DNA of 16,008 bases, taken from the IMG/VR virus record IMGVR_UViG_2675903413_000007, positions 1 to 16,008 of that record; one strand, given 5' to 3'. Origin of the DNA: a virus (taxonomy: Duplodnaviria > Heunggongvirae > Uroviricota > Caudoviricetes). Positions 1-14,733 of this stretch are shown here, one piece after another. The notes under the pieces are model-generated. The model did not search any database. It was given only the letters and a program-made list of their open reading frames with translations, and had not been told where the DNA came from. Position numbers and translations under genes: made by a program. The first letter of the stretch is position 1; every line of letters starts with the position of its first letter.

Positions 1-1236
1 CTACGATAACCGCGCATTCAACATGGCTATCTGTTCGTCGTTCATGTCATCAATCCACATACCGTAAATTTCATACACCATCTGCGCAGTTTCATGCCCC
101 ATTTGGCTGGCTATAAATGCCGGGTTCGCTCCTGCCGTCAACAGCCAGCAGGCAAAAGTATGCCGCGTATGGTACGGATTACGGCGGCGAATACCAGCAC
201 GTTTTACTGCTGCATTCCACCTTGCCCCCAAACTGCTTACCGAGTAATAAGGTTTTTGTTTTCCGTTACACACCCTGGGCATGAAAACAAAATGCAGTTT
301 TTGCTTTTCGGTTCTGCCGTACTCCCGATGATAAAAGGTGATTTCGCTTTTGCGATGATGCCCGGTCAGTTTGTATTGCTCCTTCAGTGCTTCAAGAGCA
401 GGCTGCAGTAGTGTTACTGTTCGGATCCCGGCATTTGTTTTTGGGGGACCGAACATATCAAGTATCGTCAGGTTTCTTCTGACATTCACTATTCCCTTTT
501 CGAGATCCACATCCTCCCACGCCAGAGCTGCCAGTTCCCCGTGACGAAGTCCTGAGTAAACGGCAAATTTCCACAAGTTCTGGCTCTGTCCTTTTTCACT
601 TTCCATTAATGCATTGAATTCTGTTTTAGATAACGGATCAGGCTTTATTCTGTTTCGCTGTAATTTTTTTACTCCTTCAAATGGTTTAGTTGATATAAAT
701 CCCGACTGATACGCAAAACGCAACAGCGAACAGAGCAGGGCGATATAGTTATCAACTGTGCGCACGGTTCTTCCTTTTTTGTTGGATCTTGGATTATCCA
801 GGTAAAGCGTTTCTCCATGCAGCAGTTCATTCCGGTAGTTTAAGATATCGCTATAACGAATATGTGATATCGGGGTACTTTCACAAATTATTATTCTGAG
901 TGTTTTTAATTGTGATTTCGTTTTCTTCATTGTGTTTGTTGTTAACTCTGTCTCTTTAATTTTTGTCCAGATATCACAAAGCTCTCCGAACGTTTTTATG
1001 ACTCTCGTTGTCACCATTTTTGCCCCAGTGCTGGACTGGGGAAAACGTCTTAAATACTCAAATTCACCGGAGTTTATTTCATGAACTATCAGCGATCTTA
1101 AATTTCCGGCCTTTTTAATATTACTGTTTGTAATCTCCCAGCCTTTTAATGTTTCCCGACATCGTTTTCCTCGAAACATGAACCAGATGCGAATGTATCT
1201 ACCTCTAATCTCGACACCTGTTGGTAATTTAGACAT
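1..1236 (-). CDS. intR: Phage integrase, tyrosine recombinase (Rac prophage IntR-like), 411 aa
   Basis: Complete 411-aa ORF with ATG at 1236-1234 and stop at 3-1. Translation matches the Rac integrase as I recall it; the C-terminal region carries the tyrosine-recombinase R...HxxR...Y pattern. Position next to the xis gene is typical. Confidence 0.93.
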   Translation of the reverse strand: MSKLPTGVEIRGRYIRIWFMFRGKRCRETLKGWEITNSNIKKAGNLRSLIVHEINSGEFEYLRRFPQSSTGAKMVTTRVIKTFGELCDIWTKIKETELTTNTMKKTKSQLKTLRIIICESTPISHIRYSDILNYRNELLHGETLYLDNPRSNKKGRTVRTVDNYIALLCSLLRFAYQSGFISTKPFEGVKKLQRNRIKPDPLSKTEFNALMESEKGQSQNLWKFAVYSGLRHGELAALAWEDVDLEKGIVNVRRNLTILDMFGPPKTNAGIRTVTLLQPALEALKEQYKLTGHHRKSEITFYHREYGRTEKQKLHFVFMPRVCNGKQKPYYSVSSLGARWNAAVKRAGIRRRNPYHTRHTFACWLLTAGANPAFIASQMGHETAQMVYEIYGMWIDDMNDEQIAMLNARLS

Positions 1237-2794: not shown

Positions 2795-3479
2795 TTGCAT
2801 ATTCCTTAGCCCAGCGGGGCAGTGATAATGTCTTAATAGCTGGCCATTCATCGGTATTCAGGCAGTCAGACAGGGTTCGCAGATTGCGGTGATATTCCTG
2901 TTGACCTGCCAGTTTTGCTTCTTCGCCCATCATGAAAATTTCAACCGGATAACGTCCGCATTCAATAGTTGTGCTGGCAACCAGAAAAACGAAAGTTGGC
3001 TGCACTCCAAACTGTGCTTCATAACCGTCACTGTAGAATGCATCCTGAACGTGATAGCGGTAGTCGTAATAAGCGGTTTTGAATCGTTGAATATCCGCCG
3101 TAGTTTTCACGTCCATGATCCAGTGAAATTCAGGGATAATTTTGTCCGGACGGCACCGACACAAAATTCCTGTTTCAGGATCTTCCCAGTAAATTGATGA
3201 TTCAGCGTGTCCGGCGCTTTCAACAAGCCATTGCCCCAGCGGCAAAGCCATAACGCTTTGATACATGAGTTCAATTTTCCGGCCTTCTTCCGCAGTGATA
3301 ACCGTTTTTCCTGTGCTTGCGCATTCCATCAGAAACGCTTTCTCTTCTTCTTTTCCGGCGTTTGTACGGCGGTTAAATTCAGGTGCTACGATAAAGCGGT
3401 TACTGAATTCTTCCGGTTCAAGTACGGGAAGATGCTCCAGAGTGGCTTCGCTCTTTATTTTTTGTAACTGTCCTCGATA
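2787..3479 (-). pseudogene. recE: 5'-truncated recE (exonuclease VIII) remnant: C-terminal ~230 codons only, no start codon
   Basis: The minus-strand frame is open from the stop at 3512-3510 down to 2787 and translates to ...[54 protein letters not shown]...[15 protein letters not shown], which matches the RecE C-terminal nuclease domain. Full RecE is ~866 aa. The homology and GC-rich composition stop near 3480, where the AT-rich island begins. The only in-frame Met is at 3329. Confidence 0.85.
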
Positions 3480-3484
3480 ATTTT

Positions 3485-4264
3485 TTGTACATTGATGGTG
3501 ATAGCCGCATTACGAATGATGAGAACAAGCCGTTGGGTATTAAGGCTTTGATCGAGCGACTTTGCGCAGAGAATGGTCAAGAAACAGATCATGAGGATTT
3601 CGATTCATGGTACTGCTATGATGCTTTGAAAGCGCGTTTGCAACATATGCGTTGGTTTCAATTTTATGATGCTGTTGAGATTATCGGAGATCTATTAAGA
3701 AAAAGAGATGTAGAAAGAGGCCATACTTGGGGTAAGAAGGCATTAGAAGACATTACTTTTACATCATATCGTCAGAAATTGAACGAGTTATTCGCATCTC
3801 GAAATATTGACTGGAAAATGAATTCTGCTGGTAGGTTAGAAACACCACTACCAAATGAATTAGAACAAAAAATCGATGAAACTAACAACTTATTGCAAGA
3901 CCAGTTTGAACCTGCAAGGAGGCACTATGTGAAAGCCCGGGCTTTTGCATTAGGTGCGCATAAGGATCCAGAAAATTCCATAAAAGAATCAATAAGTGCA
4001 ATAGAAAGCATGTGTCGGACTTATTATCCTTCAGCCTCAACCTTGGGCGATGTATTAAAACTGATGAGAAAAGAAAACACTATCTCACCTATGCTTTTAA
4101 CGGTGATAGAGAAATTTTACGCTTATACAAATGCAGAGCCAGCAGTAAGACATGGTAGCAACAAGGTTTCTTCTGTCTTGGAATACGATGCTGAATTCGT
4201 GTTGCATATATCAGCAGCATTTATTAGAACAATAATACAAAGAAAAGCTGTTTTGGATAACTAA
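3485..4264 (+). CDS. Hypothetical protein, 259 aa as drawn; start uncertain (TTG, no RBS); possible Abi/HEPN-like C-terminal module
   Basis: Long AT-rich ORF beginning exactly at the recE junction. The first codon is TTG with no Shine-Dalgarno, and the frame is open upstream to 3407 inside the recE remnant, so the native N-terminus may be lost. Predicted helical protein; the C-terminal segment ...[31 protein letters not shown]... loosely resembles abortive-infection C-terminal (HEPN-type) modules. The similarity is weak and unverified. Confidence 0.5.
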
Positions 4265-4350
4265 GTCAGACTTACAGCCAACTGACTGTCTCTTATTATT
4301 CAAAACATAATAATGTTAGGTCCGCTTATCGCACATCAGGGACAACCATA

Positions 4351-4381
4351 CTCAAATCTCCCACATTGCAGGAGATTTGAG
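4351..4381. repeat. Perfect 11-bp inverted repeat (ctcaaatctcc / ggagatttgag) with 9-nt spacer between convergent island genes
   Basis: Read directly from the sequence. No flanking T- or A-tract, so it is not a canonical intrinsic terminator; it could be an attenuator or a protein-binding palindrome. Confidence 0.4.
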
Positions 4382-4504
4382 TGTGAACACGTCACCGTGG
4401 AACAAAGACTGTATCATCGGTCAAAAAAGACCTGGTTATCTAGCAAAAACTTTTAACATACCAACAAACTTAATTTATTTAAATGCTATTAATACAACTA
4501 ATGT

Positions 4505-5731
4505 TTAAAATATATATTTTATATCAACCCAATTTTTAGCATTATTGTCAACTAAAGTAACGCTATGTCCATGACTTGAATTTATAGCATCGATTACTGA
4601 TTGTGATGGGTGTCCATGTGAATGACCATCCGACTGAGCTATAAACAAAACATTATCAAAATCCGCAATTATTTTTTGATTGAAATTTAATTCCGAACCA
4701 TGATGAGGTAATGTCATCACCCTTACCGTTTTAATCACTTTTGAATAGAATTCAGCCCATTTATTATAATACAATGATGTATTAAGCTTTGAGTCACCTG
4801 TTAATAAAACAGATCTAATTCCTTTATCTCTATCAAAGAGAAAATGTCGCTCAACCCGACTATTTCTAAAACTAAACCACTCACGAGAAGGCTCATTAAC
4901 AATTTTCATCTCAGCTTCTTGATTATTAATAATCAAGAGATTGATTGATATTACATTATGATCGCCAGCAAGTTTTAAATAACACTCGCGTAATTTCTTT
5001 CTTTCCCCCGTGCTAGTTAATATTTTAAGCATTTTTTTCTTACTTAACTCAGTAAAACCATTTTCTATTAACTGCTGACTGAAAATTTCAATTTTCTTAC
5101 GTGAACGGGGCGGTATCCAAGAAATAAATGACATTAGTGTATCAGTTTTGTTTTCCCCAATCCTTTTAACCAACCAACGGTTACATTCAACATCTCCTTT
5201 GGAGTCAGATATTTTCATTGGTAAGCTTACAGCGCTACCCTTAATGTTTTCACTATTAAATATAGGAGGGTCAAAATTATCATCAATATCACTGGGGTAA
5301 AGCAAAGATATATCTGCCTCAGGCAACCTTGATTTTATCCATTTGACAGGATCAATGAGAAATTCCATAAAAAGACCTGACGTAGAATTAGAGCATAGCT
5401 CCGATGCAATTAAGTAATAGCTATCATGGATATCTAGGTATGGTAATACAACCTTGCGTATTTTGTTATCTACAAGCTGACATAAATGGTCAAATCCATT
5501 TATATGGTCTGAATCCAAATGAGAGATGTATACCACATCAATATATTTCTCATCAATATTAAAGAGAGATTTAGCCACATCCATCTCCCTACGCAACGCA
5601 TTTAATTGGTCACTTCCGCAGTCATACACATAACTGTAAAGCAAACTACCATCCCTTCCCCTCAGTCCGCCTAAACTAAATCCACCCTGGCCAACGGGAA
5701 ACAATCTTTTATGAAATACTTCTCCGCTCAT
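4505..5731 (-). CDS. Standalone ComEC/Rec2-type metallo-beta-lactamase-fold hydrolase (predicted nuclease), 408 aa
   Basis: ATG at 5731 is preceded by AAGAAGGA about 7 nt upstream. Ordered MBL motifs are visible: FPVGQGGFSL near the N-terminus, YDCGSD, ISHLDSDHINGF (HxDxDH variant, as in ComEC ISHADQDH), LPHHGSELN (ComEC HHGS motif) and SDGHSHGHPS (C-terminal GHP). A ~250-aa insertion lies between motif 2 and the HHGS motif. There are no transmembrane competence-channel segments. Very AT-rich. Confidence 0.75.
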   Translation of the reverse strand: MSGEVFHKRLFPVGQGGFSLGGLRGRDGSLLYSYVYDCGSDQLNALRREMDVAKSLFNIDEKYIDVVYISHLDSDHINGFDHLCQLVDNKIRKVVLPYLDIHDSYYLIASELCSNSTSGLFMEFLIDPVKWIKSRLPEADISLLYPSDIDDNFDPPIFNSENIKGSAVSLPMKISDSKGDVECNRWLVKRIGENKTDTLMSFISWIPPRSRKKIEIFSQQLIENGFTELSKKKMLKILTSTGERKKLRECYLKLAGDHNVISINLLIINNQEAEMKIVNEPSREWFSFRNSRVERHFLFDRDKGIRSVLLTGDSKLNTSLYYNKWAEFYSKVIKTVRVMTLPHHGSELNFNQKIIADFDNVLFIAQSDGHSHGHPSQSVIDAINSSHGHSVTLVDNNAKNWVDIKYIF

Positions 5732-6445
5732 ATATCCTTCTTACACCCTAACGTGATCATAAAATTGTCTTAAAGTTAAGTTTAAAGCTAAAAAGTCACA
5801 GCTCATTCCAACTCGTGAGCAATAGGAATGTATATTCAATCAGTTAGAGGATCAACCCGATTTTCTCTAATGAGATTTCGCAACGCAGTACGAACAGCAG
5901 CTACTTCTGCCATCTCATTAACAACCACACTGGACTACAATCCCCTAAGTTCTACAGACTGTAACCATATCCTCTTCACAGAAATAATCTGATTAATGCT
6001 GAAGGTCATCTTTCTCGACGCGAATGTATGACATAACAACCTCAGTTAATTATCTTTCGATAGAAAAATACCTTCACAAAAGGTTTAAGCAACCCATCAC
6101 AAGACAACACGCTAAGCTTGCCTTGTAAGCGTCCTGCTTAACCGAACAGTTCGCTTTCAGAGGATCTCCGGAGAACAGCTCCGATGCCTTATAAGGCCAA
6201 TGCTCGCTCCTCGCTCACTGCGGACCTAAGGTTTGGTCAGCTTGTTCGCACTCTGCCAAAAGCGGGAGTTACTCCCATTCGGTGTTAATCAATGTAGAGC
6301 AGATCAATCAACGACAAAGAAAATGAGAGGCATATCACTACTCATATGAAAATTATTGTAGTAAAGTGAGCCGTAAGTTCATCATTTATAAATCATATAG
6401 CATATATGTTATATCAATTTTAATTTAAATGGCAGAATAATTACC

Positions 6446-7150
6446 ATGGAAAAAATTAAAGCTCCTTGTCCATATTGTAAAGGTGAAAAAAATTGCCACA
6501 TAATAGGCCATAAAAAAAGAGAATGGAGTGAGGATGATGGGGGCAACTATTTTTGGGCTGAAAGTGAATACAAATTATTAGAGTGTATGGGGTGCGACGG
6601 AATATTTACATATATTAAATCCCGTCACAGTGAAGATTACGACATTGAAAGAGATGAGTCAGGCTATGATTGTATGGTATATAACTATCATATATCAACA
6701 TATCCCACTCAAGAGCAAGAAGAGATTAGACCAACTTGGTTTGGTGAGATATTAAACAAAGATCGTCAGCTGTATGTAATAATGAACGAAATGTACATCG
6801 CATTTCAAAATAAATCATTCATTTTAGCGGCGATTGGACTTAGAACTATTTTTGACAGAACAGTTGAGGTTCTAAATATTCATCCAGGATATACATTAGG
6901 CCAGAAGGTTGACATTCTTAAAGAGGAAGGTTTTATTGGGGAAACAGAAAGGAGCCAACTTAAAATTGTAACCGAAGCTGGCAACTCAGCTGCACACAGG
7001 ACATGGGCACCGAACGAAACTGAATTTAAATCGCTTTTGGTAATTATAGAAAATTTTGTAATGCGAACAATACTAAAAAATGAGGATATATTTAAGATTA
7101 CAGAAAAATTACCTGCGAAATATCCAAGACCTCCCAAAAAGCAAGAATAA
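6446..7150 (+). CDS. Zn-ribbon + DUF4145-like (HEPN-superfamily) protein, 234 aa
   Basis: The N-terminus has CPYC...(35 aa)...CMGC, a CxxC-CxxC zinc ribbon. The C-terminal ~100 aa contain AAIGLRTIFDRTVEVL and the motif TEAGNSAAHRTW, which matches the conserved GNxAAH signature of DUF4145 domains as I recall it. AT-rich; divergent from the MBL gene. Confidence 0.7.
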   Translation: MEKIKAPCPYCKGEKNCHIIGHKKREWSEDDGGNYFWAESEYKLLECMGCDGIFTYIKSRHSEDYDIERDESGYDCMVYNYHISTYPTQEQEEIRPTWFGEILNKDRQLYVIMNEMYIAFQNKSFILAAIGLRTIFDRTVEVLNIHPGYTLGQKVDILKEEGFIGETERSQLKIVTEAGNSAAHRTWAPNETEFKSLLVIIENFVMRTILKNEDIFKITEKLPAKYPRPPKKQE

Positions 7151-7559
7151 TGTACGTAAGTGTAAATAGAGCTAAGAGATTATATATTGACTCTGGTTAT
7201 CTCTATTAGCACATGCTTTTTGTAATGCCTTAACTGATTATTTAAACTCCTGTCAGCTTTTCGCTCAAAGCGGACTAAAGTGTTGGCTTGTGACTGACTT
7301 AGCGCATTTAAGGAAGTGGTGGTGGTGACGGGGTGTTGTGTCCCATTTCCACAGAATAAATCAGAGAAACTATAGCGGCTGTAATGGCAATCTATGGTCT
7401 TGCTATTGCTCTTATGGATCACCTTTCTGATTGATTTCATATTGGCGAGGTAACGGGAGTTAAGTAGAATAGCTGCGGGTGCTTGAGGCTGTCTGCCTCG
7501 GGCATGAACACCAAAGGCAGATAGAGAAAAGCCCCAGTTAACATTACGCGTCCGGCAAG

Positions 7560-7640
7560 ACGCTTAACATTAATCTGAGGCCACATCTATGCTTTGCATA
7601 CGTAGATTAGCCTCTTACCGACCAAAAGGTCAAGGAGAAG
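7560..7640 (-). ncRNA. sok: Expected Sok-type antisense RNA opposite the mok/hok leader (position approximate)
   Basis: Inferred from hok-family locus architecture only; no promoter or terminator for it was pinned down in the sequence. Confidence 0.25.
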
Positions 7641-7837
7641 CAGGCTATGAAGCAGCAAAAGGCGATGTTAATCACCCTGATCGTCATCTGTTTAACCGTT
7701 ATAGTGACGGTACTGGTAACGAGGAAAGACCTCTGCGAGGTACGAATCCGAACCGACCAGACGGAGGTCGCTGTCTTCACAGCTTACGAACTTGGGGAGT
7801 AAGAGGACCAGCGGGGAGAAATCCCCGCAACCTCTGA
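7589..7837 (+). CDS. mok: Mok-type overlapping reading frame (modulator of killing) of the hok locus
   Basis: An 82-codon ORF in a different frame that starts upstream of hok and fully overlaps it, which is the canonical mok arrangement. Confidence 0.5.
   Translation: MLCIRRLASYRPKGQGEAGYEAAKGDVNHPDRHLFNRYSDGTGNEERPLRGTNPNRPDGGRCLHSLRTWGVRGPAGRNPRNL
7647..7802 (+). CDS. hokD: Hok-family type I toxin (HokD/RelF-like membrane peptide), 51 aa
   Basis: ATG at 7647 with AAGGAGA about 10 nt upstream. Translation MKQQKAMLITLIVICLTVIVTVLVTRKDLCEVRIRTDQTEVAVFTAYELGE is near-identical to E. coli HokD/RelF and Gef/HokC as recalled. It has a single transmembrane helix and the conserved Cys. Confidence 0.9.
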   Translation: MKQQKAMLITLIVICLTVIVTVLVTRKDLCEVRIRTDQTEVAVFTAYELGE

Positions 7838-8865: not shown

Positions 8866-9155
8866 TGGTGAATTTACGTAAAGCGGCTAAAGGCCAGATG
8901 TGCCAGATCAGAATCCCTGGCTACTGCAATCACAATCCCGAAACCTCTGTGCTGGCGCATTACAGGCTGGCGGGGACGTGCGGAACAGCGACAAAACCAC
9001 ACGATATGCAGGCGGCGATAGCCTGTAGCTCATGCCACGATCTAATCGACGGGCGGGTAAAAACCAGCGATTACACCAAAGAAGAATTGCGCCTGATGCA
9101 TGCTGAAGGGGTTTTTCGCACACAAGAAATCTGGAGAAAGAAAGGTCATTTATGA
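8865..9155 (+). CDS. YbcO-like nin-region protein (DUF1364, Zn-binding putative nuclease), 96 aa
   Basis: Translation MVNLRKAAKGQMCQIRIPGYCNHNPETSVLAHYRLAGTCGTATKPHDMQAAIACSSCHD... shows the Cys/His pattern and overall similarity to DLP12 YbcO as recalled. Its stop overlaps the next start (ATGA at 9152-9155). Confidence 0.7.
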   Translation: MVNLRKAAKGQMCQIRIPGYCNHNPETSVLAHYRLAGTCGTATKPHDMQAAIACSSCHDLIDGRVKTSDYTKEELRLMHAEGVFRTQEIWRKKGHL

Positions 9156-9694
9156 TTTACCCAACGAATACAGGAAAAAGCGGAGAACACCTTCGCCTCA
9201 CCACGCTGGAAAGTGTCTGGATTCAGGGAAAACTACGTATGTGGGGGCGCTGGTCGTATATTGGCGGTGGCAGGTCAGGGAATATGTTCAATCAGTTGTT
9301 GGCATCCAAAAAACTGACGAAAACAGCCATTAATGAAGCCCTGCGCAGAATGAAAAAAGCGGGAATAGAGAAAGCTGAGCTGGAAGCGTTTTTGCGAGAG
9401 ATGATCAACGGCAAGCAAAAGAGCTGGCTGGCGCATTGTACTGATGCAGAGGCGTTATGTATTGATCGAGTCATAAGTGAGGTGCTGGCAGAGCATCCAG
9501 GATTGATTTGCATTCTCCGGCAACGCTATGAAGGGCGGGGGATGACTAAGCGCAAAATGGCTGAATTGCTAAATGATGCACACCCAGAGTGGTGTTTTAG
9601 CACATGCGAAAAACGGATTGCTAATTGGTTAGCTGTTGCTGAGTATGCCCTATATATTCCCATGCGTGAATCATTTGCTGAGAAAATGGCTTGA
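9152..9694 (+). CDS. Putative late-gene antiterminator Q (non-lambda, phage 21/82-like type), 180 aa
   Basis: Last gene of the coupled nin-like operon, followed within ~80 bp by a strong intrinsic terminator (tR'-like) and further downstream by a phage-21-type lysis cassette. The call rests on position and context, not on a recognised motif. Confidence 0.5.
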   Translation: MIYPTNTGKSGEHLRLTTLESVWIQGKLRMWGRWSYIGGGRSGNMFNQLLASKKLTKTAINEALRRMKKAGIEKAELEAFLREMINGKQKSWLAHCTDAEALCIDRVISEVLAEHPGLICILRQRYEGRGMTKRKMAELLNDAHPEWCFSTCEKRIANWLAVAEYALYIPMRESFAEKMA

Positions 9695-9773
9695 TTTCTT
9701 ACGTATAAACTGCTTCAATTTTGCTATGCTTCGCAAAGCTGTATCGCGAGGCGGATTGCAGACATGGACATCG

Positions 9774-9803
9774 TAAAAAAACCGCTTAATGCGGTTTTTT
9801 TAC
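9774..9803 (+). terminator. Intrinsic terminator (tR'-like): aaaaaa-ACCGC-ttaat-GCGGT-ttttttt
   Basis: GC stem with 5-nt loop followed by a 7-T run; the upstream A-tract makes it potentially bidirectional. Located just after the Q-like gene. Confidence 0.7.
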
Positions 9804-10121
9804 GTCAGGAAAGCAGGGGAGAATGCTGCTAGTTGGGCAACTGGTCTTTCTGCTCCAAATTATAACAGAGACCAGTTATAGTTTCGGTGCTGTGTTTTTT
9901 TTACAATATTGTGATAACACATTGCTGGCGGGAGTTTTGATATTTCTTGGCAGGGGCTGATGATGCGTTATCCTGATGTCGTCAACTCATATAAAATGAG
10001 ATGAGAGATCATTGCAGGGTGGTTTGTAATTCGCTGTTTAGCGGGACAATATGTTGTCTGATACAAGACACCCGACGCCTCAGATTACTATAATAAAGAC
10101 GAAGCATCCTTTGTATTGACC

Positions 10122-10147
10122 AACCGCCTGTTTAGGCGGTTCTTTTT
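10122..10147 (+). terminator. Intrinsic terminator: AACCGCCT-gttt-AGGCGGTT-cttttt
   Basis: Perfect 8-bp stem and 4-nt loop followed by a T-rich tract, read directly from the sequence. Confidence 0.6.
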
Positions 10148-10679
10148 GGGCTGGTTTATTGTATGCCAAATGATTATTAAAAAGGTTGTGTTAATAACAA
10201 AATCCGAAATAATATGCCTGCATATTTTTATCTTGCTTATATTCTGCATATTGTGCATAGCAGGCTCATCCCTGCAATCAAAACTGTATGATGAGTATTT
10301 TTTGTTTTCCTTTTTTCCAGTCATCTGATGATGACCTGCTTCTTTTTAATCCGGATCGACATCAGTTTTTTAAGATAATTCCTGCGAGTTATATGCATAA
10401 ATACCACAAACTCCGCATTTTATGTGGTTGGGAGTTGCCGGGCGCGCAGTGAGTTTGCTAAGAAAACTCCTGCATGGTGAATCCCCCTGTGCGGTGGGGT
10501 GATACCATTAACCTTTTCTGTCGCCGACAGGTATCACGAACATTTTGTTCACCGGGAGGCACCCGGCACCATGCACTTCAATAGATTCTCTCCACATTAT
10601 GGATATTCTTTCAGAATATCCCACGCAGACTTTGTGTAAATGTTAACAAATGTGCGTTTTATTTGATCTGATTCGCTGT

Positions 10680-10709
10680 TTGAGCGTCCAAAACAACGGT
10701 ATATATAAT
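10680..10709 (+). promoter_or_regulatory. Candidate sigma70 promoter for the lipoprotein moron (-35 ttgagc, 18-bp spacer, -10 tataat)
   Basis: Consensus -10 hexamer TATAAT at 10704-10709 with a TTGAGC -35 at 10680-10685, about 30 bp upstream of the lipoprotein ATG and its GAGGA RBS. Confidence 0.4.
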
Positions 10710-10738
10710 CCTTTACTATATGACATATGTGAGGAAAA

Positions 10739-11167
10739 ATGGGTTTTCGTAGCGCATCAATTCTTACGTTGATTATTAGTGGGATTATTATCGGGTGCAC
10801 TGATGCTGTATCGACAAATTATCATGACCGTACATCATATTACTCCGATAAAGTAATAGAGACACAGTATGTGAGTTCATCTGAACGTACTTCTGATGTT
10901 AGTGAGGATATCCGTCTGTATGCCCATCAAATCAAGAGCGCCATCGAAAAACAGTTCGGGGATGCGAGTAAGTATTCAGGAAAAGAGTGTACACTGAGAA
11001 TGCATATGGCCCCGAATGGCCTTCTACTGGAGGTTAAAAGAGAAAGTGGAGACCTCGATTTATGTCGTGAAGCGATGAATGCGATAAAGAATGCTGATAT
11101 ACCTGCCCCCCCTTCGCCGGAAGTATATAAAGTATTTCAAAATGGGGTGCTGGATTTTAAACCCTGA
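10739..11167 (+). CDS. Lipoprotein with TolA domain III-like C-terminal domain, 142 aa
   Basis: Signal peptide with lipobox IIGC; GAGGA RBS. The C-terminal segment YAHQIKSAIEKQFGDASKYSGKECTLRMHMAPNGLLLEVKRESGDLDLCREAMNAIKNADIPAPPSPEVYKVFQNGVLDFKP aligns closely with the C-terminus of E. coli TolA (YAGQIKSAIESKFYDASSYAGKTCTLRIKLAPDGMLLDIKPEGGDPALCQAALAAAKLAKIPKPPSQAVYEVFKNAPLDFKP, from memory). Confidence 0.8.
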   Translation: MGFRSASILTLIISGIIIGCTDAVSTNYHDRTSYYSDKVIETQYVSSSERTSDVSEDIRLYAHQIKSAIEKQFGDASKYSGKECTLRMHMAPNGLLLEVKRESGDLDLCREAMNAIKNADIPAPPSPEVYKVFQNGVLDFKP

Positions 11168-11317
11168 TATTTATTGTTTTGTAATAAACGGTTTCGGCTT
11201 AGGTTTGTTCTGACACAGCTACGGCACTGAGCTAAATTTAGCGGATAGTCAGCTCTGAGCCAGTGGCGGACGTAACAACTACTATTGCTGAGATTTTAAT
11301 GGATTGAGGAGCAAGAA

Positions 11318-11713
11318 GTGGGATTAAAGAAAATCGTTATGTTGACTTTTTGGGTCGGTTTTGTTGCGGGATGCACACCTTTACACCCTTCAGATTGCCA
11401 CAAAACTACTGCTACAGGTAGTTGCAGTTCAGGACGCTGGGATGATCAGGATGAATGGGGGGCGCAAGCGCGGGGAATCAGAGCTGCAATTAATGCCAAA
11501 CTTGATGAGCCGCATAACTGGAAAGGGAAAAAATGCAGGTTGCATATGGAATTCTCTCAGGATGGCACGGCGTTAAAAATATCTACCAGTAACGGTGATA
11601 AAGCCTATTGCGAAGCGATAAAGTCCGCAGCTCATAAAGCCAAATTTCCGGCCTTCAACAATCCGGAAGTCTACAGAGATTTTCAGAAATCTGGCTTTGA
11701 CATGCGAGGTTAG
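11318..11713 (+). CDS. Second lipoprotein with TolA domain III-like C-terminal domain (divergent paralog), 131 aa
   Basis: GTG start at 11318 preceded by GAGGAG; lipobox VAGC. The C-terminus KCRLHMEFSQDGTALKISTSNGDKAYCEAIKSAAHKAKFPAFNNPEVYRDFQKSGFDMRG keeps the TolA-III pattern (C...L...DG.....GD...C.A...A.....P.....VY..F...). Confidence 0.75.
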   Translation: MGLKKIVMLTFWVGFVAGCTPLHPSDCHKTTATGSCSSGRWDDQDEWGAQARGIRAAINAKLDEPHNWKGKKCRLHMEFSQDGTALKISTSNGDKAYCEAIKSAAHKAKFPAFNNPEVYRDFQKSGFDMRG

Positions 11714-11838
11714 CTCTTCAATTACTATATCTCATTCATAGCAAACTGACAGATTTGATGATGTTCTATATACGAAACCTGTGATGTCAAGTCTGAGCTA
11801 ATACAAATAAACATAATATCAGAGAAATACATTTTATT

Positions 11839-11862
11839 AGCTCGCTACGGCGAGCTTTTTAT
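11839..11862 (+). terminator. Intrinsic terminator after the lipoprotein moron: AGCTCGC-tacg-GCGAGCT-ttttt
   Basis: Perfect 7-bp stem, 4-nt loop and T-tract, read directly from the sequence. Confidence 0.6.
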
Positions 11863-11964
11863 ATTGCATCGTCTCCAGCATATATATCAATTAAGGCTCT
11901 GATTGATGTGTCTGAAAGCCTACACATAATAACTATGCCATCCGTTCCGTGCGGAGGTGAGGCT

Positions 11965-12180
11965 ATGAAATCCATGGACAAAATTTCAACAGGCATTGCC
12001 TACGGCACCTCCGCAGGCAGTGCTGGCTACTGGTTTTTACAGTTGCTCGATAGAGTAACTCCGTCACAGTGGGCTGCAATCGGTGTGCTGGGTAGCCTGG
12101 TATTTGGCCTGCTGACGTACCTGACAAACCTTTATTTCAAGATTAAAGAAGATAAGCGCAAGGCTGCGAGAGGTGAATAA
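11965..12180 (+). CDS. Phage 21-type pinholin S (dual-start MKSM motif), 71 aa
   Basis: Translation [71 protein letters not shown] matches S21 as recalled. GGAGGTGA RBS upstream; stop overlaps the endolysin start (TAATG). The track ORF begins earlier, at 11908. Confidence 0.88.
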
Positions 12181-12677
12181 TGCCTCCATCATTACGAAAA
12201 GCCGTTGCTGCTGCTATTGGTGGCGGAGCAATTGCTATAGCATCAGTGTTAATCACTGGCCCAAGTGGTAACGATGGTCTGGAAGGTGTCAGCTACATAC
12301 CATACAAAGATATTGTTGGTGTATGGACCGTATGTCACGGGCATACAGGAAAAGACATCATGCTCGGTAAAACGTATACCAAAGCAGAATGCAAAGCACT
12401 CTTGAATAAAGACCTTGCCACTGTCGCCAGACAAATTAACCCATACATCGAAGTCGATATACCGGAAACAACGCGCGGCGCTCTTTACTCATTCGTTTAC
12501 AACGTGGGTGCTGGCAATTTCAGAACATCGACGCTTCTTCGCAAAATAAACCAGGGCGATATCAAAGGCGCATGTGATCAGTTACGTCGCTGGACATATG
12601 CTGGCGGTAAGCAATGGAAAGGTCTCATGACTCGTCGTGAGATTGAGCGTGAAATCTGTTTGTGGGGTCAGCAATGA
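12180..12677 (+). CDS. SAR endolysin (phage 21 R-like lysozyme, GH24), 165 aa
   Basis: N-terminal signal-anchor-release segment [18 protein letters not shown] followed by a T4-lysozyme-like catalytic region (LEG...KDI...WTV). Near-identical to the R21 sequence as recalled. Confidence 0.93.
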
Positions 12678-13138
12678 ACAGAGTAACCGCGATTATCTCC
12701 GCTCTGGTTATCTGCATCATCGTCTGCCTGTCATGGGCTGTTAATCATTACCGTGATAACGCCATTACCTATAAAGCCCAGCGCGACAAAAATGCCAAAG
12801 AACTGAAGCTGGCGAACGCGGCAATTACTGACATGCAGATGCGTCAGCGTGATGTTGCTGCGCTCGATGCAAAATACACGAAGGAGTTAGCTGATGCGAA
12901 AGCTGAAAATGATGTTCTGCGTGATGATGTTGCCGCTGGTCGTCGTCGGTTGCACATCAAAGCAGTCTGTCAGTCAGTGCGTGAAGCCACCACCGCCTCC
13001 GGCGTGGATAATGCAGCCTCCCCCCGACTGGCAGACACCGCTGAACGGGATTATTTCACCCTCCGGGAACGACTGGTAATGATGCAGGCCCAACTTGAAG
13101 GTGCTCAGCAATACATAACCGAGCAGTGTTTAAAGTAA
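12674..13138 (+). CDS. Inner-membrane spanin Rz (i-spanin)
   Basis: Translation [68 protein letters not shown]... matches lambda-type Rz. ATG overlaps the endolysin stop (ATGA). Confidence 0.93.
12894..13079 (+). CDS. Outer-membrane spanin Rz1 (o-spanin lipoprotein), embedded in Rz in the +1 frame
   Basis: Translation [52 protein letters not shown]... has lipobox VVGC and a proline-rich region; classic embedded Rz1. Confidence 0.9.
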
Positions 13139-13275
13139 AATCTTAACTACAATATGATTCATTTTGATGATTGTTTCATAAGGAACAGTGAAGTAAGATC
13201 TAAGAGGAGTTAAATTTTATACAGTATAATCATAATATTGCAGCAAGGTGGTTATAATTGAAAGAATATTTAGAT

Positions 13276-14733
13276 ATGAATACATCTCATGTAAGAGTTG
13301 TTACTCATATGTGTGGGTTCCTGGTTTGGCTCTATAGTCTTTCAATGTTGCCACCAATGGTTGTAGCATTGTTTTATAAAGAAAAAAGCCTGTTCGTTTT
13401 CTTTATAACTTTCGTTATATTTTTTTGCATTGGTGGCGGAGCGTGGTATACAACTAAGAAATCTGGCATTCAATTACGTACCCGTGATGGGTTTATTATA
13501 ATTGTAATGTTTTGGATTTTGTTTTCTGTTATTAGTGCATTCCCTTTATGGATTGACTCAGAACTTAATTTAACGTTCATTGATGCTCTGTTTGAAGGGG
13601 TTTCTGGAATAACAACAACAGGAGCAACTGTAATTGATGATGTTAGTTCATTACCTCGGGCATATTTGTACTATCGGTCACAGTTAAATTTTATAGGTGG
13701 TTTAGGAGTTATTGTTCTGGCGGTTGCTGTATTGCCATTATTGGGTATTGGTGGTGCAAAGCTTTATCAGTCAGAAATGCCGGGGCCATTTAAGGATGAC
13801 AAACTCACTCCCCGCCTGGCCGATACGTCACGGACACTGTGGATAACTTATTCTTTATTAGGTATTGCTTGTATTGTCTGTTATAGACTTGCAGGAATGC
13901 CTTTGTTTGATGCTATTTGTCACGGGATTTCCACAGTTTCGCTTGGTGGTTTCTCAACTCATAGCGAGAGTATCGGATATTTTAATAACTATTTGGTTGA
14001 GCTGGTGGCTGGTTCTTTTTCCCTGCTATCGGCTTTCAACTTCACTCTTTGGTATATTGTTATTAGCAGGAAAACGATAAAACCTTTAATCAGAGATATT
14101 GAACTTCGTTTCTTTCTGTTAATAGCCTTAGGGGTGATCATTGTTACCTCTTTCCAGGTCTGGCATATAGGTATGTATGACTTGCATGGAAGTTTTATTC
14201 ATTCGTTTTTTCTTGCCAGCTCCATGCTCACTGATAATGGTTTAGCTACGCAGGATTATGCAAGTTGGCCCACGCACACGATAGTGTTTTTGCTGTTGTC
14301 AAGTTTCTTTGGGGGATGTATAGGTTCAACTTGTGGTGGAATTAAGTCACTTCGATTTCTTATACTTTTCAAACAAAGCAAACACGAGATAAATCAGCTT
14401 TCTCATCCCAGAGCGTTGTTGAGTGTAAATGTAGGAGGGAAGATAGTTACAGATCGTGTAATGAGGTCTGTATGGAGTTTCTTTTTTCTTTATACACTCT
14501 TCACGGTGTTTTTTATACTGGTGTTAAATGGTATGGGATATGATTTTCTTACATCATTTGCAACAGTGGCTGCATGTATTAATAATATGGGATTAGGTTT
14601 TGGGGCTACTGCATCGTCATTCGGAGTGCTTAATGACATTGCAAAATGTTTAATGTGCATAGCTATGATTCTTGGTCGCCTTGAAATTTATCCTGTTATT
14701 ATATTGTTTTCAGGTTTTTTTTGGCGCTCCTAA
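13276..14733 (+). CDS. trkG: Potassium uptake protein TrkG (Trk system membrane subunit), 485 aa
   Basis: Translation from MNTSHVRVVTHMCGFLVWLYSL... matches Rac-encoded TrkG of E. coli K-12. Multi-pass membrane protein; AT-rich gene. The track ORF starts 18 nt earlier on a TTG. Confidence 0.93.
   Translation: MNTSHVRVVTHMCGFLVWLYSLSMLPPMVVALFYKEKSLFVFFITFVIFFCIGGGAWYTTKKSGIQLRTRDGFIIIVMFWILFSVISAFPLWIDSELNLTFIDALFEGVSGITTTGATVIDDVSSLPRAYLYYRSQLNFIGGLGVIVLAVAVLPLLGIGGAKLYQSEMPGPFKDDKLTPRLADTSRTLWITYSLLGIACIVCYRLAGMPLFDAICHGISTVSLGGFSTHSESIGYFNNYLVELVAGSFSLLSAFNFTLWYIVISRKTIKPLIRDIELRFFLLIALGVIIVTSFQVWHIGMYDLHGSFIHSFFLASSMLTDNGLATQDYASWPTHTIVFLLLSSFFGGCIGSTCGGIKSLRFLILFKQSKHEINQLSHPRALLSVNVGGKIVTDRVMRSVWSFFFLYTLFTVFFILVLNGMGYDFLTSFATVAACINNMGLGFGATASSFGVLNDIAKCLMCIAMILGRLEIYPVIILFSGFFWRS

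Follow-up and report, generated by a model that had tools for sequence, protein, structure and literature searches.

Positions 11965 to 12677 of the window, by which we mean the whole 16,008-nucleotide stretch of viral DNA that was analysed, raise the question of whether a holin with two potential starts and a signal-anchor-release (SAR) endolysin are intact there, to which lysis system they belong, and what role they may have in the remnant of a prophage. The first-pass annotation had described a two-gene lysis system, intact, potentially functional and of a known, well-characterised type. Holin and endolysin lie exactly where it had placed them (ATG at 11965, 71 codons; ATG at 12180, 165 codons, ending at 12677), alignment with S21 and R21 revealed neither a frameshift nor a substitution of a catalytic residue, and the type is indeed familiar, as the phage 21 record (OL657228) has the same gene order, lengths and overlapping junctions; the system is larger than was thought, however, since S and R are followed by the spanin genes Rz and Rz1, which had been missed. 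It is very probable that S, R and Rz/Rz1 constitute an intact four-gene lysis cassette of the phage 21 type, carried by an E. coli prophage of the Rac type that has decayed.

The lysis cassette and its Rac-type setting

The window represents what is left of an E. coli prophage of the Rac type next to ttcA, and its genes outside the cassette are, in window order:

1 to 1236, minus strand: intR
After intR: xisR; ralR with the RalA sRNA; then recT and a recE fragment
In the place of the Rac immunity/replication region: an AbiJ-like ORF, an MBL-fold protein and a DUF4145 protein
Between the DUF4145 gene and the Q-like gene: hok/sok; NinB-like and HNH genes
9152 to 9694, plus strand: Q-like late-gene antiterminator, 180 aa, DUF1133 (PF06576, E = 2.5e-107; weak match to PF06530, Phage_antitermQ)
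10739 to 11167 and 11318 to 11713, upstream of the cassette: two lipoproteins with a TolA C-terminal domain
13258 to 14733, downstream of the cassette: trkG
After trkG: a ynaK fragment and tail-fibre remnants

The remnant is devoid of immunity, replication and virion genes (racR, ydaS, ydaT and the replication region are gone), and the cassette is therefore no longer able to serve virion release. The cassette itself comprises the following products:

11965 to 12180, plus strand: S, long form, the S71-type antiholin product of the dual-start gene (71 aa, beginning MKSMDKIS; PF04971)
11974 to 12180, plus strand: S, short form, the pinholin proper (68 aa from M4, matching the S21-68 annotation in OL657228)
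12180 to 12677, plus strand: R, SAR endolysin, a GH24 lysozyme of 165 aa (PF00959; alignment with R21 and RrrD)
12674 to 13138, plus strand: Rz, i-spanin of 154 aa (PF03245, E = 2.3e-53; phrog_13, 'Rz-like spanin', over the full length)
12894 to 13079, plus strand: Rz1, o-spanin of 61 aa, embedded in the +1 frame of Rz (PF06085, E = 2e-19; phrog_3198)

All four frames are open, without a frameshift or an internal stop. The stop codon of S (TAA, 12178 to 12180) shares one base with the ATG of R at 12180 (TAATG), and the ATG of Rz overlaps the stop of R (ATGA). The holin, endolysin and spanin families of the PHROGs profiles were all matched in the cassette, in which translational coupling and every diagnostic residue have been kept. 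Were it expressed, the cassette would probably be able to lyse cells. The minus-strand ORFs across 11965 to 12677 have lengths of 30 to 61 aa; none had any support and they were taken as chance occurrences. An Rfam scan returned no match inside the cassette.

The nearest characterised system is that of phage 21, annotated with S21-71, S21-68, a SAR endolysin and i- and o-spanins: the same four genes occur in the same order with the same overlapping junctions, S (71 aa) and R (165 aa) have the same lengths as here, and Rz1 is embedded in an Rz that is approximately 92% identical. Nucleotide identity to phage 21 is 80.6% for S but 97.6% for R, which indicates that the cassette is a mosaic. The flanks also differ; in phage 21, pR', tR' and tRNAs directly precede S and bor lies downstream, whereas here the two TolA-like lipoprotein genes intervene upstream and trkG follows. 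No tRNAs were found in the window, while both phage 21 and phage vB_EcoS-683R6 have tRNAs between Q and S. The same cassette is also found in DLP12 (essD-rrrD(ybcS)-rzpD/rzoD), likewise within a defective lambdoid prophage, although the prophage (Rac here) and the flanking genes differ, the N-terminus of the window holin is of the S21 type (I7, S8, I11) with R30 in addition, and the window R has E91 and I159. The system is one already known: thousands of genomes carry annotations of its S and R alleles, and crystal structures as well as genetic studies exist for close relatives.

The Rac-type prophages of strains EC2, GF31 and ET729 and the phage vB_EcoS-683R6 share the locus and its neighbours, namely the Q-like DUF1133 gene, the TolA-like genes, S, R, Rz/Rz1, trkG and ynaK. 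The three chromosomal copies have 99.3 to 99.7% nucleotide identity to the window and an identical holin protein; compared with EC2, which retains head and tail genes, the window remnant has suffered larger deletions, and its breakpoints relative to GF31 and ET729 are those read from annotations. The phage vB_EcoS-683R6 is an inducible Rac-like phage with the same Q (94%), cassette and trkG. K-12 Rac belongs to the same family, with the attachment site beside ttcA, the intR-xisR-ralR-recT left arm and trkG in common; there, S, R and the 5' end of Rz are gone, so that the rzpR pseudogene, rzoR and trkG are left, whereas the window keeps the cassette and has lost racR, ydaS, ydaT and the replication region.

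Holin, endolysin and spanins

The holin matches Pfam PF04971 (Phage_holin_2_1, 'Bacteriophage P21 holin S') with an E-value of 2.1e-35 and 120.9 bits (cut-off 26) over profile positions 1 to 63 of 64, and S is a class II holin by this family membership. Its start Met codons are M1 (ATG at 11965) and M4 (ATG at 11974), with Lys2-Ser3 between them as in S21. The MKSM dual start that had been proposed by comparison with S21 is therefore present, although its spacer is Lys-Ser and not Lys alone; Met-Lys-Met is the arrangement of lambda S. Upstream lies the following element:

11953 to 11962, plus strand: two adjacent Shine-Dalgarno elements recognised from the sequence, a pair conserved with phage 21 and DLP12

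The first, GGAGG (11953 to 11957), stands 7 nt before ATG1, and the second, GAGG (11959 to 11962), stands 11 nt before ATG4 (11974); in the record of phage 434, the two corresponding sites are labelled as RBS of S71 and of S68, respectively. Residues M1, K2, S3 and M4 are invariant across the phage 21, 434, DLP12 and Rac types. The dual-start motif is thus present, and both starts are predicted to be used, each with its own Shine-Dalgarno element, so that the longer form would gain a single positive charge. A GTG at 11908 opens a 90-aa ORF but is not taken as the start of S; homology begins at M1/M4, and the Shine-Dalgarno elements precede 11965. Folds of 81 nt at the dual start were no more stable than those of shuffled sequences (z of -0.57, -0.97 and +0.42), and for this reason we make no claim of RNA structure at this site. 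In phage 21 as in the window, GGAGG is tied up in a small hairpin.

The first transmembrane domain (TMD1) of S, at approximately residues 8 to 27, is SAR-like, with 60% G/A/S/T and a mean Kyte-Doolittle (KD) hydropathy of 0.39, and this weak hydrophobicity fits a releasable TMD1. A loop (28 to 35) leads to TMD2 (approximately 36 to 58, mean KD 1.5), which carries the G40xxxS44xxxG48 face and is followed by a basic, charged C-terminal tail. The invariant columns of S are M1, K2, S3 and M4, D5 and K6, G40, S44, G48 and the basic tail; the glycine zipper has been described as the interaction face (PMC9025707).

The holin is identical to S21 at 64 of 71 positions (90%), the seven substitutions being W27L, Q30R, S32T, L47F, F49L, R61K and R64K; two of them (L47F and F49L) flank G48, and one (W27L) falls in the aromatic patch. 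Identity rises to 94% with K-12 DLP12 EssD (67/71) and with the phage 434 holin, and to 100% with EssD WP_000839565.1 of the Rac-type prophages of EC2, GF31 and ET729; by sequence, S is the EssD/434 allele and not S21 itself. Each residue of the holin has a precedent among the holins of plaque-forming or inducible phages (434, mEp460_ev081, vB_EcoS-683R6 or phage 21): I7, S8 and I11 in phage 21 and mEp460_ev081, L27, F47, L49, K61 and K64 in 434, and R30 in vB_EcoS-683R6. S21 has an 'aromatic patch', YWFLQW, that ends in W27 and stabilises its pores; deletion of the patch makes them less stable (bioRxiv 10.1101/2021.04.20.440580). The window holin is without this tryptophan, but loss of function through W27L is unlikely, because L27 is common to phage 434 and DLP12; the effects of W27L, L47F and F49L are judged here from their occurrence in viable phages and from one truncation study.

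R matches Pfam PF00959 (Phage lysozyme) with an E-value of 2.8e-45 and, in the PDB, the structures 3HDE (R21; E = 1e-110) and 4ZPU (RrrD; E = 2.5e-111), with 163 of 165 residues identical to each. It differs from R21 (3HDE/3HDF) by K91E and M98T, and from DLP12 RrrD (4ZPU) by K91E and V159I. The catalytic triad E35-X8-D44-X5-T50, which follows the lysozyme definition E-X8-D-X5-T (PMC9239132), is present in alignment with R21 and RrrD and is invariant in the cluster, and the N-terminal anchor, at approximately residues 8 to 27, is identical to that of R21 and rich in Gly and Ala (13 of 20 residues, or 65%, are G/A/S/T). The first-pass description of R, with an N-terminal SAR segment and Glu-Asp-Thr catalytic residues, agrees with these observations, and its wording 'potentially functional' is a fair one for both genes, as the diagnostic features of holin and endolysin are kept on alignment with phage 21. 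The N-terminus is predicted to act as an uncleaved, weakly hydrophobic signal-anchor-release segment.

SAR endolysins are reportedly regulated either by refolding, as in R21, or by disulfide isomerisation, as in P1 Lyz (a distinction said to come from Sun and co-workers in 2009 and Xu and co-workers in 2005). The cysteines of R are at positions 52, 71, 132 and 160, with none before residue 52 and none in the SAR anchor; by sequence, R is of the R21 type and not of the P1 Lyz type, which has a caging Cys in the anchor. The window carries A8, A73 and E91 in R, and E91 is the only residue without a counterpart in the phage collection, K being found in R21, in RrrD and in all of the phages, with a best phage match of 99.4%; among the natural alleles of the cluster, position 91, outside the catalytic triad, varies between K, E and T.

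Rz has an N-terminal TMD (residues 5 to 23, mean KD 2.63) and a periplasmic coiled-coil domain, and keeps C99 and C152, while Rz1 has the lipobox VVGC (Cys20), Thr at +2 (Thr21, no Asp), Cys29 and a proline-rich stretch (PPPPP). On these sequence features, Rz and Rz1 qualify as a two-component embedded spanin pair. Each ends in a C-terminus of the Rac type (...QCLK and ...SGNDW, respectively), common to EC2 and vB_EcoS-683R6. Rz in the window carries K42 and V81 (R42K, A81V), and a single C-to-T change at 12915 gives both Rz A81V and Rz1 L8F.

A mechanism can be proposed from the near-identity to the phage 21 system, for which the dual start and the pinholin/SAR mechanism have been summarised (PMC9636201; bioRxiv 10.1101/2021.04.20.440580; PMC9239132). 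S would be translated from the two starts M1 and M4, and S68 would accumulate in the inner membrane with two TMDs, after which the weakly hydrophobic TMD1 would exit the bilayer. The freed TMD2 would oligomerise through its G40/S44/G48 face into heptameric pinholes of approximately 2 nm, with collapse of the proton-motive force; in S71, the extra Lys would hold TMD1 in the membrane, making this form a weak antiholin that delays triggering. R would be exported by Sec and stay inactive while tethered by its Gly/Ala-rich SAR anchor, until depolarisation freed it to refold into an active muramidase, built around E35, D44 and T50, and to degrade the murein. Rz, in the inner membrane, and Rz1, an outer-membrane lipoprotein, would then breach the outer membrane. 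By virtue of their resemblance to those of phage 21, the present alleles are expected to form pinholes, to release the SAR anchor and to be competent for lysis.

Proposed antitermination and the terminators upstream of the cassette

The Q-like protein matches phrog_753, 'anti-termination protein Q-like', with an E-value of 2e-79 and is 94% identical to the 'antitermination protein Q' of phage vB_EcoS-683R6; the gene is intact, and its product presumably activates the late operon to which the cassette belongs. Two further elements lie between it and S:

9695 to 9806, plus strand: inferred late promoter/Q-utilisation region, then a terminator AAAAAAACCGCTTAATGCGGTTTTTTT
11839 to 11856, plus strand: intrinsic-terminator-like hairpin from a terminator scan (AGCTCGC-TACG-GCGAGCT, then TTTTT)

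Approximately 65 bp directly after the stop codon of Q are conserved with the Rac-like phage vB_EcoS-683R6, and in each genome its own hairpin and T-run follow. This is the layout expected of pR'/qut/tR', and the stretch is a putative example of it. A promoter scan of 9500 to 13400 gave 14 sites, compared with 9.1 +/- 2.5 in shuffled sequences, which is not an enrichment, and no pR' hexamers could be assigned in that interval.

The second hairpin, approximately 110 nt upstream of S, has a folding energy of -13.0 kcal/mol (z of -4.18), and none of 200 shuffles was as stable; DLP12 has a different hairpin and T-run at the equivalent position. With such a strong terminator before S, transcription from upstream would need Q-mediated read-through, and passage of 11839 to 11856 would thus depend on the upstream Q-like antiterminator. 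Because the pR/immunity region that normally drives Q has been deleted, Q is possibly unexpressed and the cassette possibly silent in situ. The DLP12 operon, by comparison, is transcribed in K-12, is conserved, modulates the production of outer-membrane vesicles (OMVs) and has a lytic phenotype at raised expression (PMC7918800).

Constraint, distribution and present role

In comparison with phage 21, dN/dS was 0.03 for S (33.5 synonymous and 8.5 non-synonymous changes) and 0.06 for R, and in comparison with DLP12 it was 0.07 for S and 0.04 for R. Pooled pN/pS, calculated over the window and four close Rac-type sequences with few substitutions among them, ranged from 0.05 to 0.37, and S, R, Rz and Rz1 were full-length in all five of these Rac-type sequences (window included). 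Purifying selection on the cassette is detectable. A segment comprising S-R-Rz-trkG was found over at least 80% of the query in approximately 682 of 5426 complete E. coli genomes; none of the complete E. coli genomes in the collection was identical to the window, the best being 99.3 to 99.7% identical.

Given the identity established above, what has to be weighed is the present role of the cassette. We regard as evenly balanced the chances that it is a neutral relic, intact because the decay of the prophage is recent, silent behind 11839 to 11856 without a pR for Q, and heading to the state of K-12 Rac. This possibility bears on what the cassette does at present and leaves its identity untouched. 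It is in keeping with the missing immunity, replication and virion genes, with K-12 Rac, where just the rzpR pseudogene and rzoR are kept of the cassette, with the strong terminator upstream of S and the lack of a significant promoter signal in the scan, and with several recent non-synonymous differences from the sister prophages (V8A, T73A and K91E in R; R42K and A81V in Rz). A relic free to decay is harder to reconcile with the four frames being intact in every Rac-type relative examined at a pooled pN/pS below 0.4, with the number of complete E. coli genomes that keep S-R-Rz-trkG (the 682 of 5426 given above), or with the analogous DLP12 cassette, which is transcribed in K-12 (PMC7918800).

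Another possibility, which we consider rather unlikely, is that the host keeps the cassette as a domesticated module, expressed at a low level for cell-wall turnover, vesicles, biofilm or altruistic lysis in the manner of DLP12, whose conserved and transcribed operon modulates OMVs and lyses cells when over-expressed (PMC7918800). Cassette and Q have survived where most other phage functions were lost, and purifying selection is detectable; the selection signal may, however, date from the times of an active phage, and active lambdoid phages can renew the genes by recombination. We know of no host-benefit data for Rac-type cassettes, which weighs against domestication, as does the fact that K-12 dispenses with its Rac copy. 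As has been proposed for DLP12, the cassette might more specifically be a host-selected module for low-level or stress-triggered autolysis or envelope remodelling, co-expressed with the TolA-domain lipoproteins and trkG, but we hold this to be unlikely. The survival of a full lysis module and Q in a near-empty prophage is explained equally well by recent decay and by domestication.

That the cassette is sequence-intact yet impaired, with K91E in R, W27L, L47F or F49L in S, or R42K or A81V in Rz (with the coupled L8F in Rz1) abolishing or badly mistiming lysis, is highly improbable: the seven positions at which the holin departs from S21 do include both neighbours of G48 and one residue of the aromatic patch, and E91 of R is absent from the phage collection, but all of the holin residues occur in viable phages, E91 lies outside the triad at a naturally variable position of a protein that is very common in exactly this form, and the spanin changes are conservative, with cysteines and lipobox kept.

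On the favoured reading of an intact cassette of the phage 21 type, the Rac-type remnant of the source strain still holds a complete and probably lysis-competent cassette, unlike K-12 Rac. This is relevant to the stability of the strain, with regard to lysis on stress or trans-activation by the Q of a superinfecting lambdoid phage, and it is a single further observation on the time for which lysis modules persist once the rest of a prophage has decayed; beyond annotation, the importance of the result is small. The proteins themselves are widely shared, the exact holin, endolysin and Rz1 each being present on at least 1000 contigs, whereas the exact Rz variant with both R42K and A81V is rare and occurs on 12 contigs.

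Lipoprotein genes between Q and the holin gene

Two tandem genes for TolA-like lipoproteins lie between Q, the Q-like late-gene antiterminator gene, and the holin gene, the slot in which Stx phages carry stx. They are recognized by their lipoboxes and by PF06519:

10739-11167 (+), first TolA-like lipoprotein gene
11318-11713 (+), second TolA-like lipoprotein gene

The two are paralogues with 29% mutual identity; their lipoboxes read IIIGC and VAGC, and both contain the TolA C-terminal domain (E 2e-23 and 1e-14, respectively). Both match phrog_5772, a PHROG annotated as function unknown, and a literature search on the lipoprotein pair found no paper. The first copy is a full-length ORF in the window, whereas annotations of the Rac-type sister prophages in E. 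coli strains EC2, GF31 and ET729 treat it as a pseudogene truncated at its N-terminus. Phage mEp460_ev081 also has this pair of genes upstream of its holin gene. One might speculate that these proteins display TolA domains in the periplasm as decoys that counter colicins or filamentous phages.

Candidate regulatory elements upstream of the pair

The sequence separating Q from the first TolA-like gene holds three predicted elements:

9695-9806 (+), putative late promoter/Q-utilisation region and terminator (conservation with vB_EcoS-683R6; hairpin and T-run)
10065-10149 (+), promoter-like site (AAGACA-18-TATAAT, 10/12 matches) and terminator-like hairpin
10442-10628 (+), match to the sRNA family STnc100 (Rfam, 86.6 bits against a gathering score of 47)

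Immediately after Q, about 65 bp are conserved between the window and the inducible Rac-like phage vB_EcoS-683R6; in the window these are followed by a hairpin and T-run, AAAAAAACCGCTTAATGCGGTTTTTTT, whereas vB_EcoS-683R6 has a different hairpin and T-run at this point. No promoter hexamers were identified within 9695-9806, which is probably the late promoter/Q-utilisation site and the late terminator tR'. Approximately 30 nt past the promoter-like site AAGACA-18-TATAAT is the terminator-like hairpin, AACCGCCTGTTTAGGCGGTT, with a T-run; together they could yield a very short transcript of ~50 nt.

Sequence details of the lysis cassette

At 11963-11977 (+), the two holin start codons are predicted to pair with each other in the mRNA (CUAUG...CAUGG, a 5-bp hairpin). 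This pairing is probably not meaningful, because phage 21 has a mismatch in the hairpin and the fold showed no excess stability over shuffles. A single C-to-T change at 12915 relative to the sister prophages, also carried by GF31, alters the overlapping genes Rz (A81V) and Rz1 (L8F, in the signal peptide).

Accessory genes in the late region and elsewhere

Directly 3' of Rz lies trkG, a classic moron of the late region, which occupies the same position in both the K-12 Rac prophage and the inducible phage vB_EcoS-683R6:

13258-14733 (+), trkG potassium transporter gene (PF02386, E 5e-145)

At 3423-7150, where K-12 Rac has racC to ydaW, three other ORFs stand in place of the Rac immunity and replication region:

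3485-4264, ORF with a weak AbiJ_NTD4 match
4505-5731 (-), MBL-fold protein gene
6446-7150, DUF4145 protein gene

This replacement may be a defence island; the corresponding neighbourhood in GF31 additionally has an anti-phage dGTPase. The window also contains two type I toxin-antitoxin loci:

1557-1967, RalR/RalA (RalA sRNA match, 225 bits)
7477-7837, hok/sok (sok match, 105 bits)
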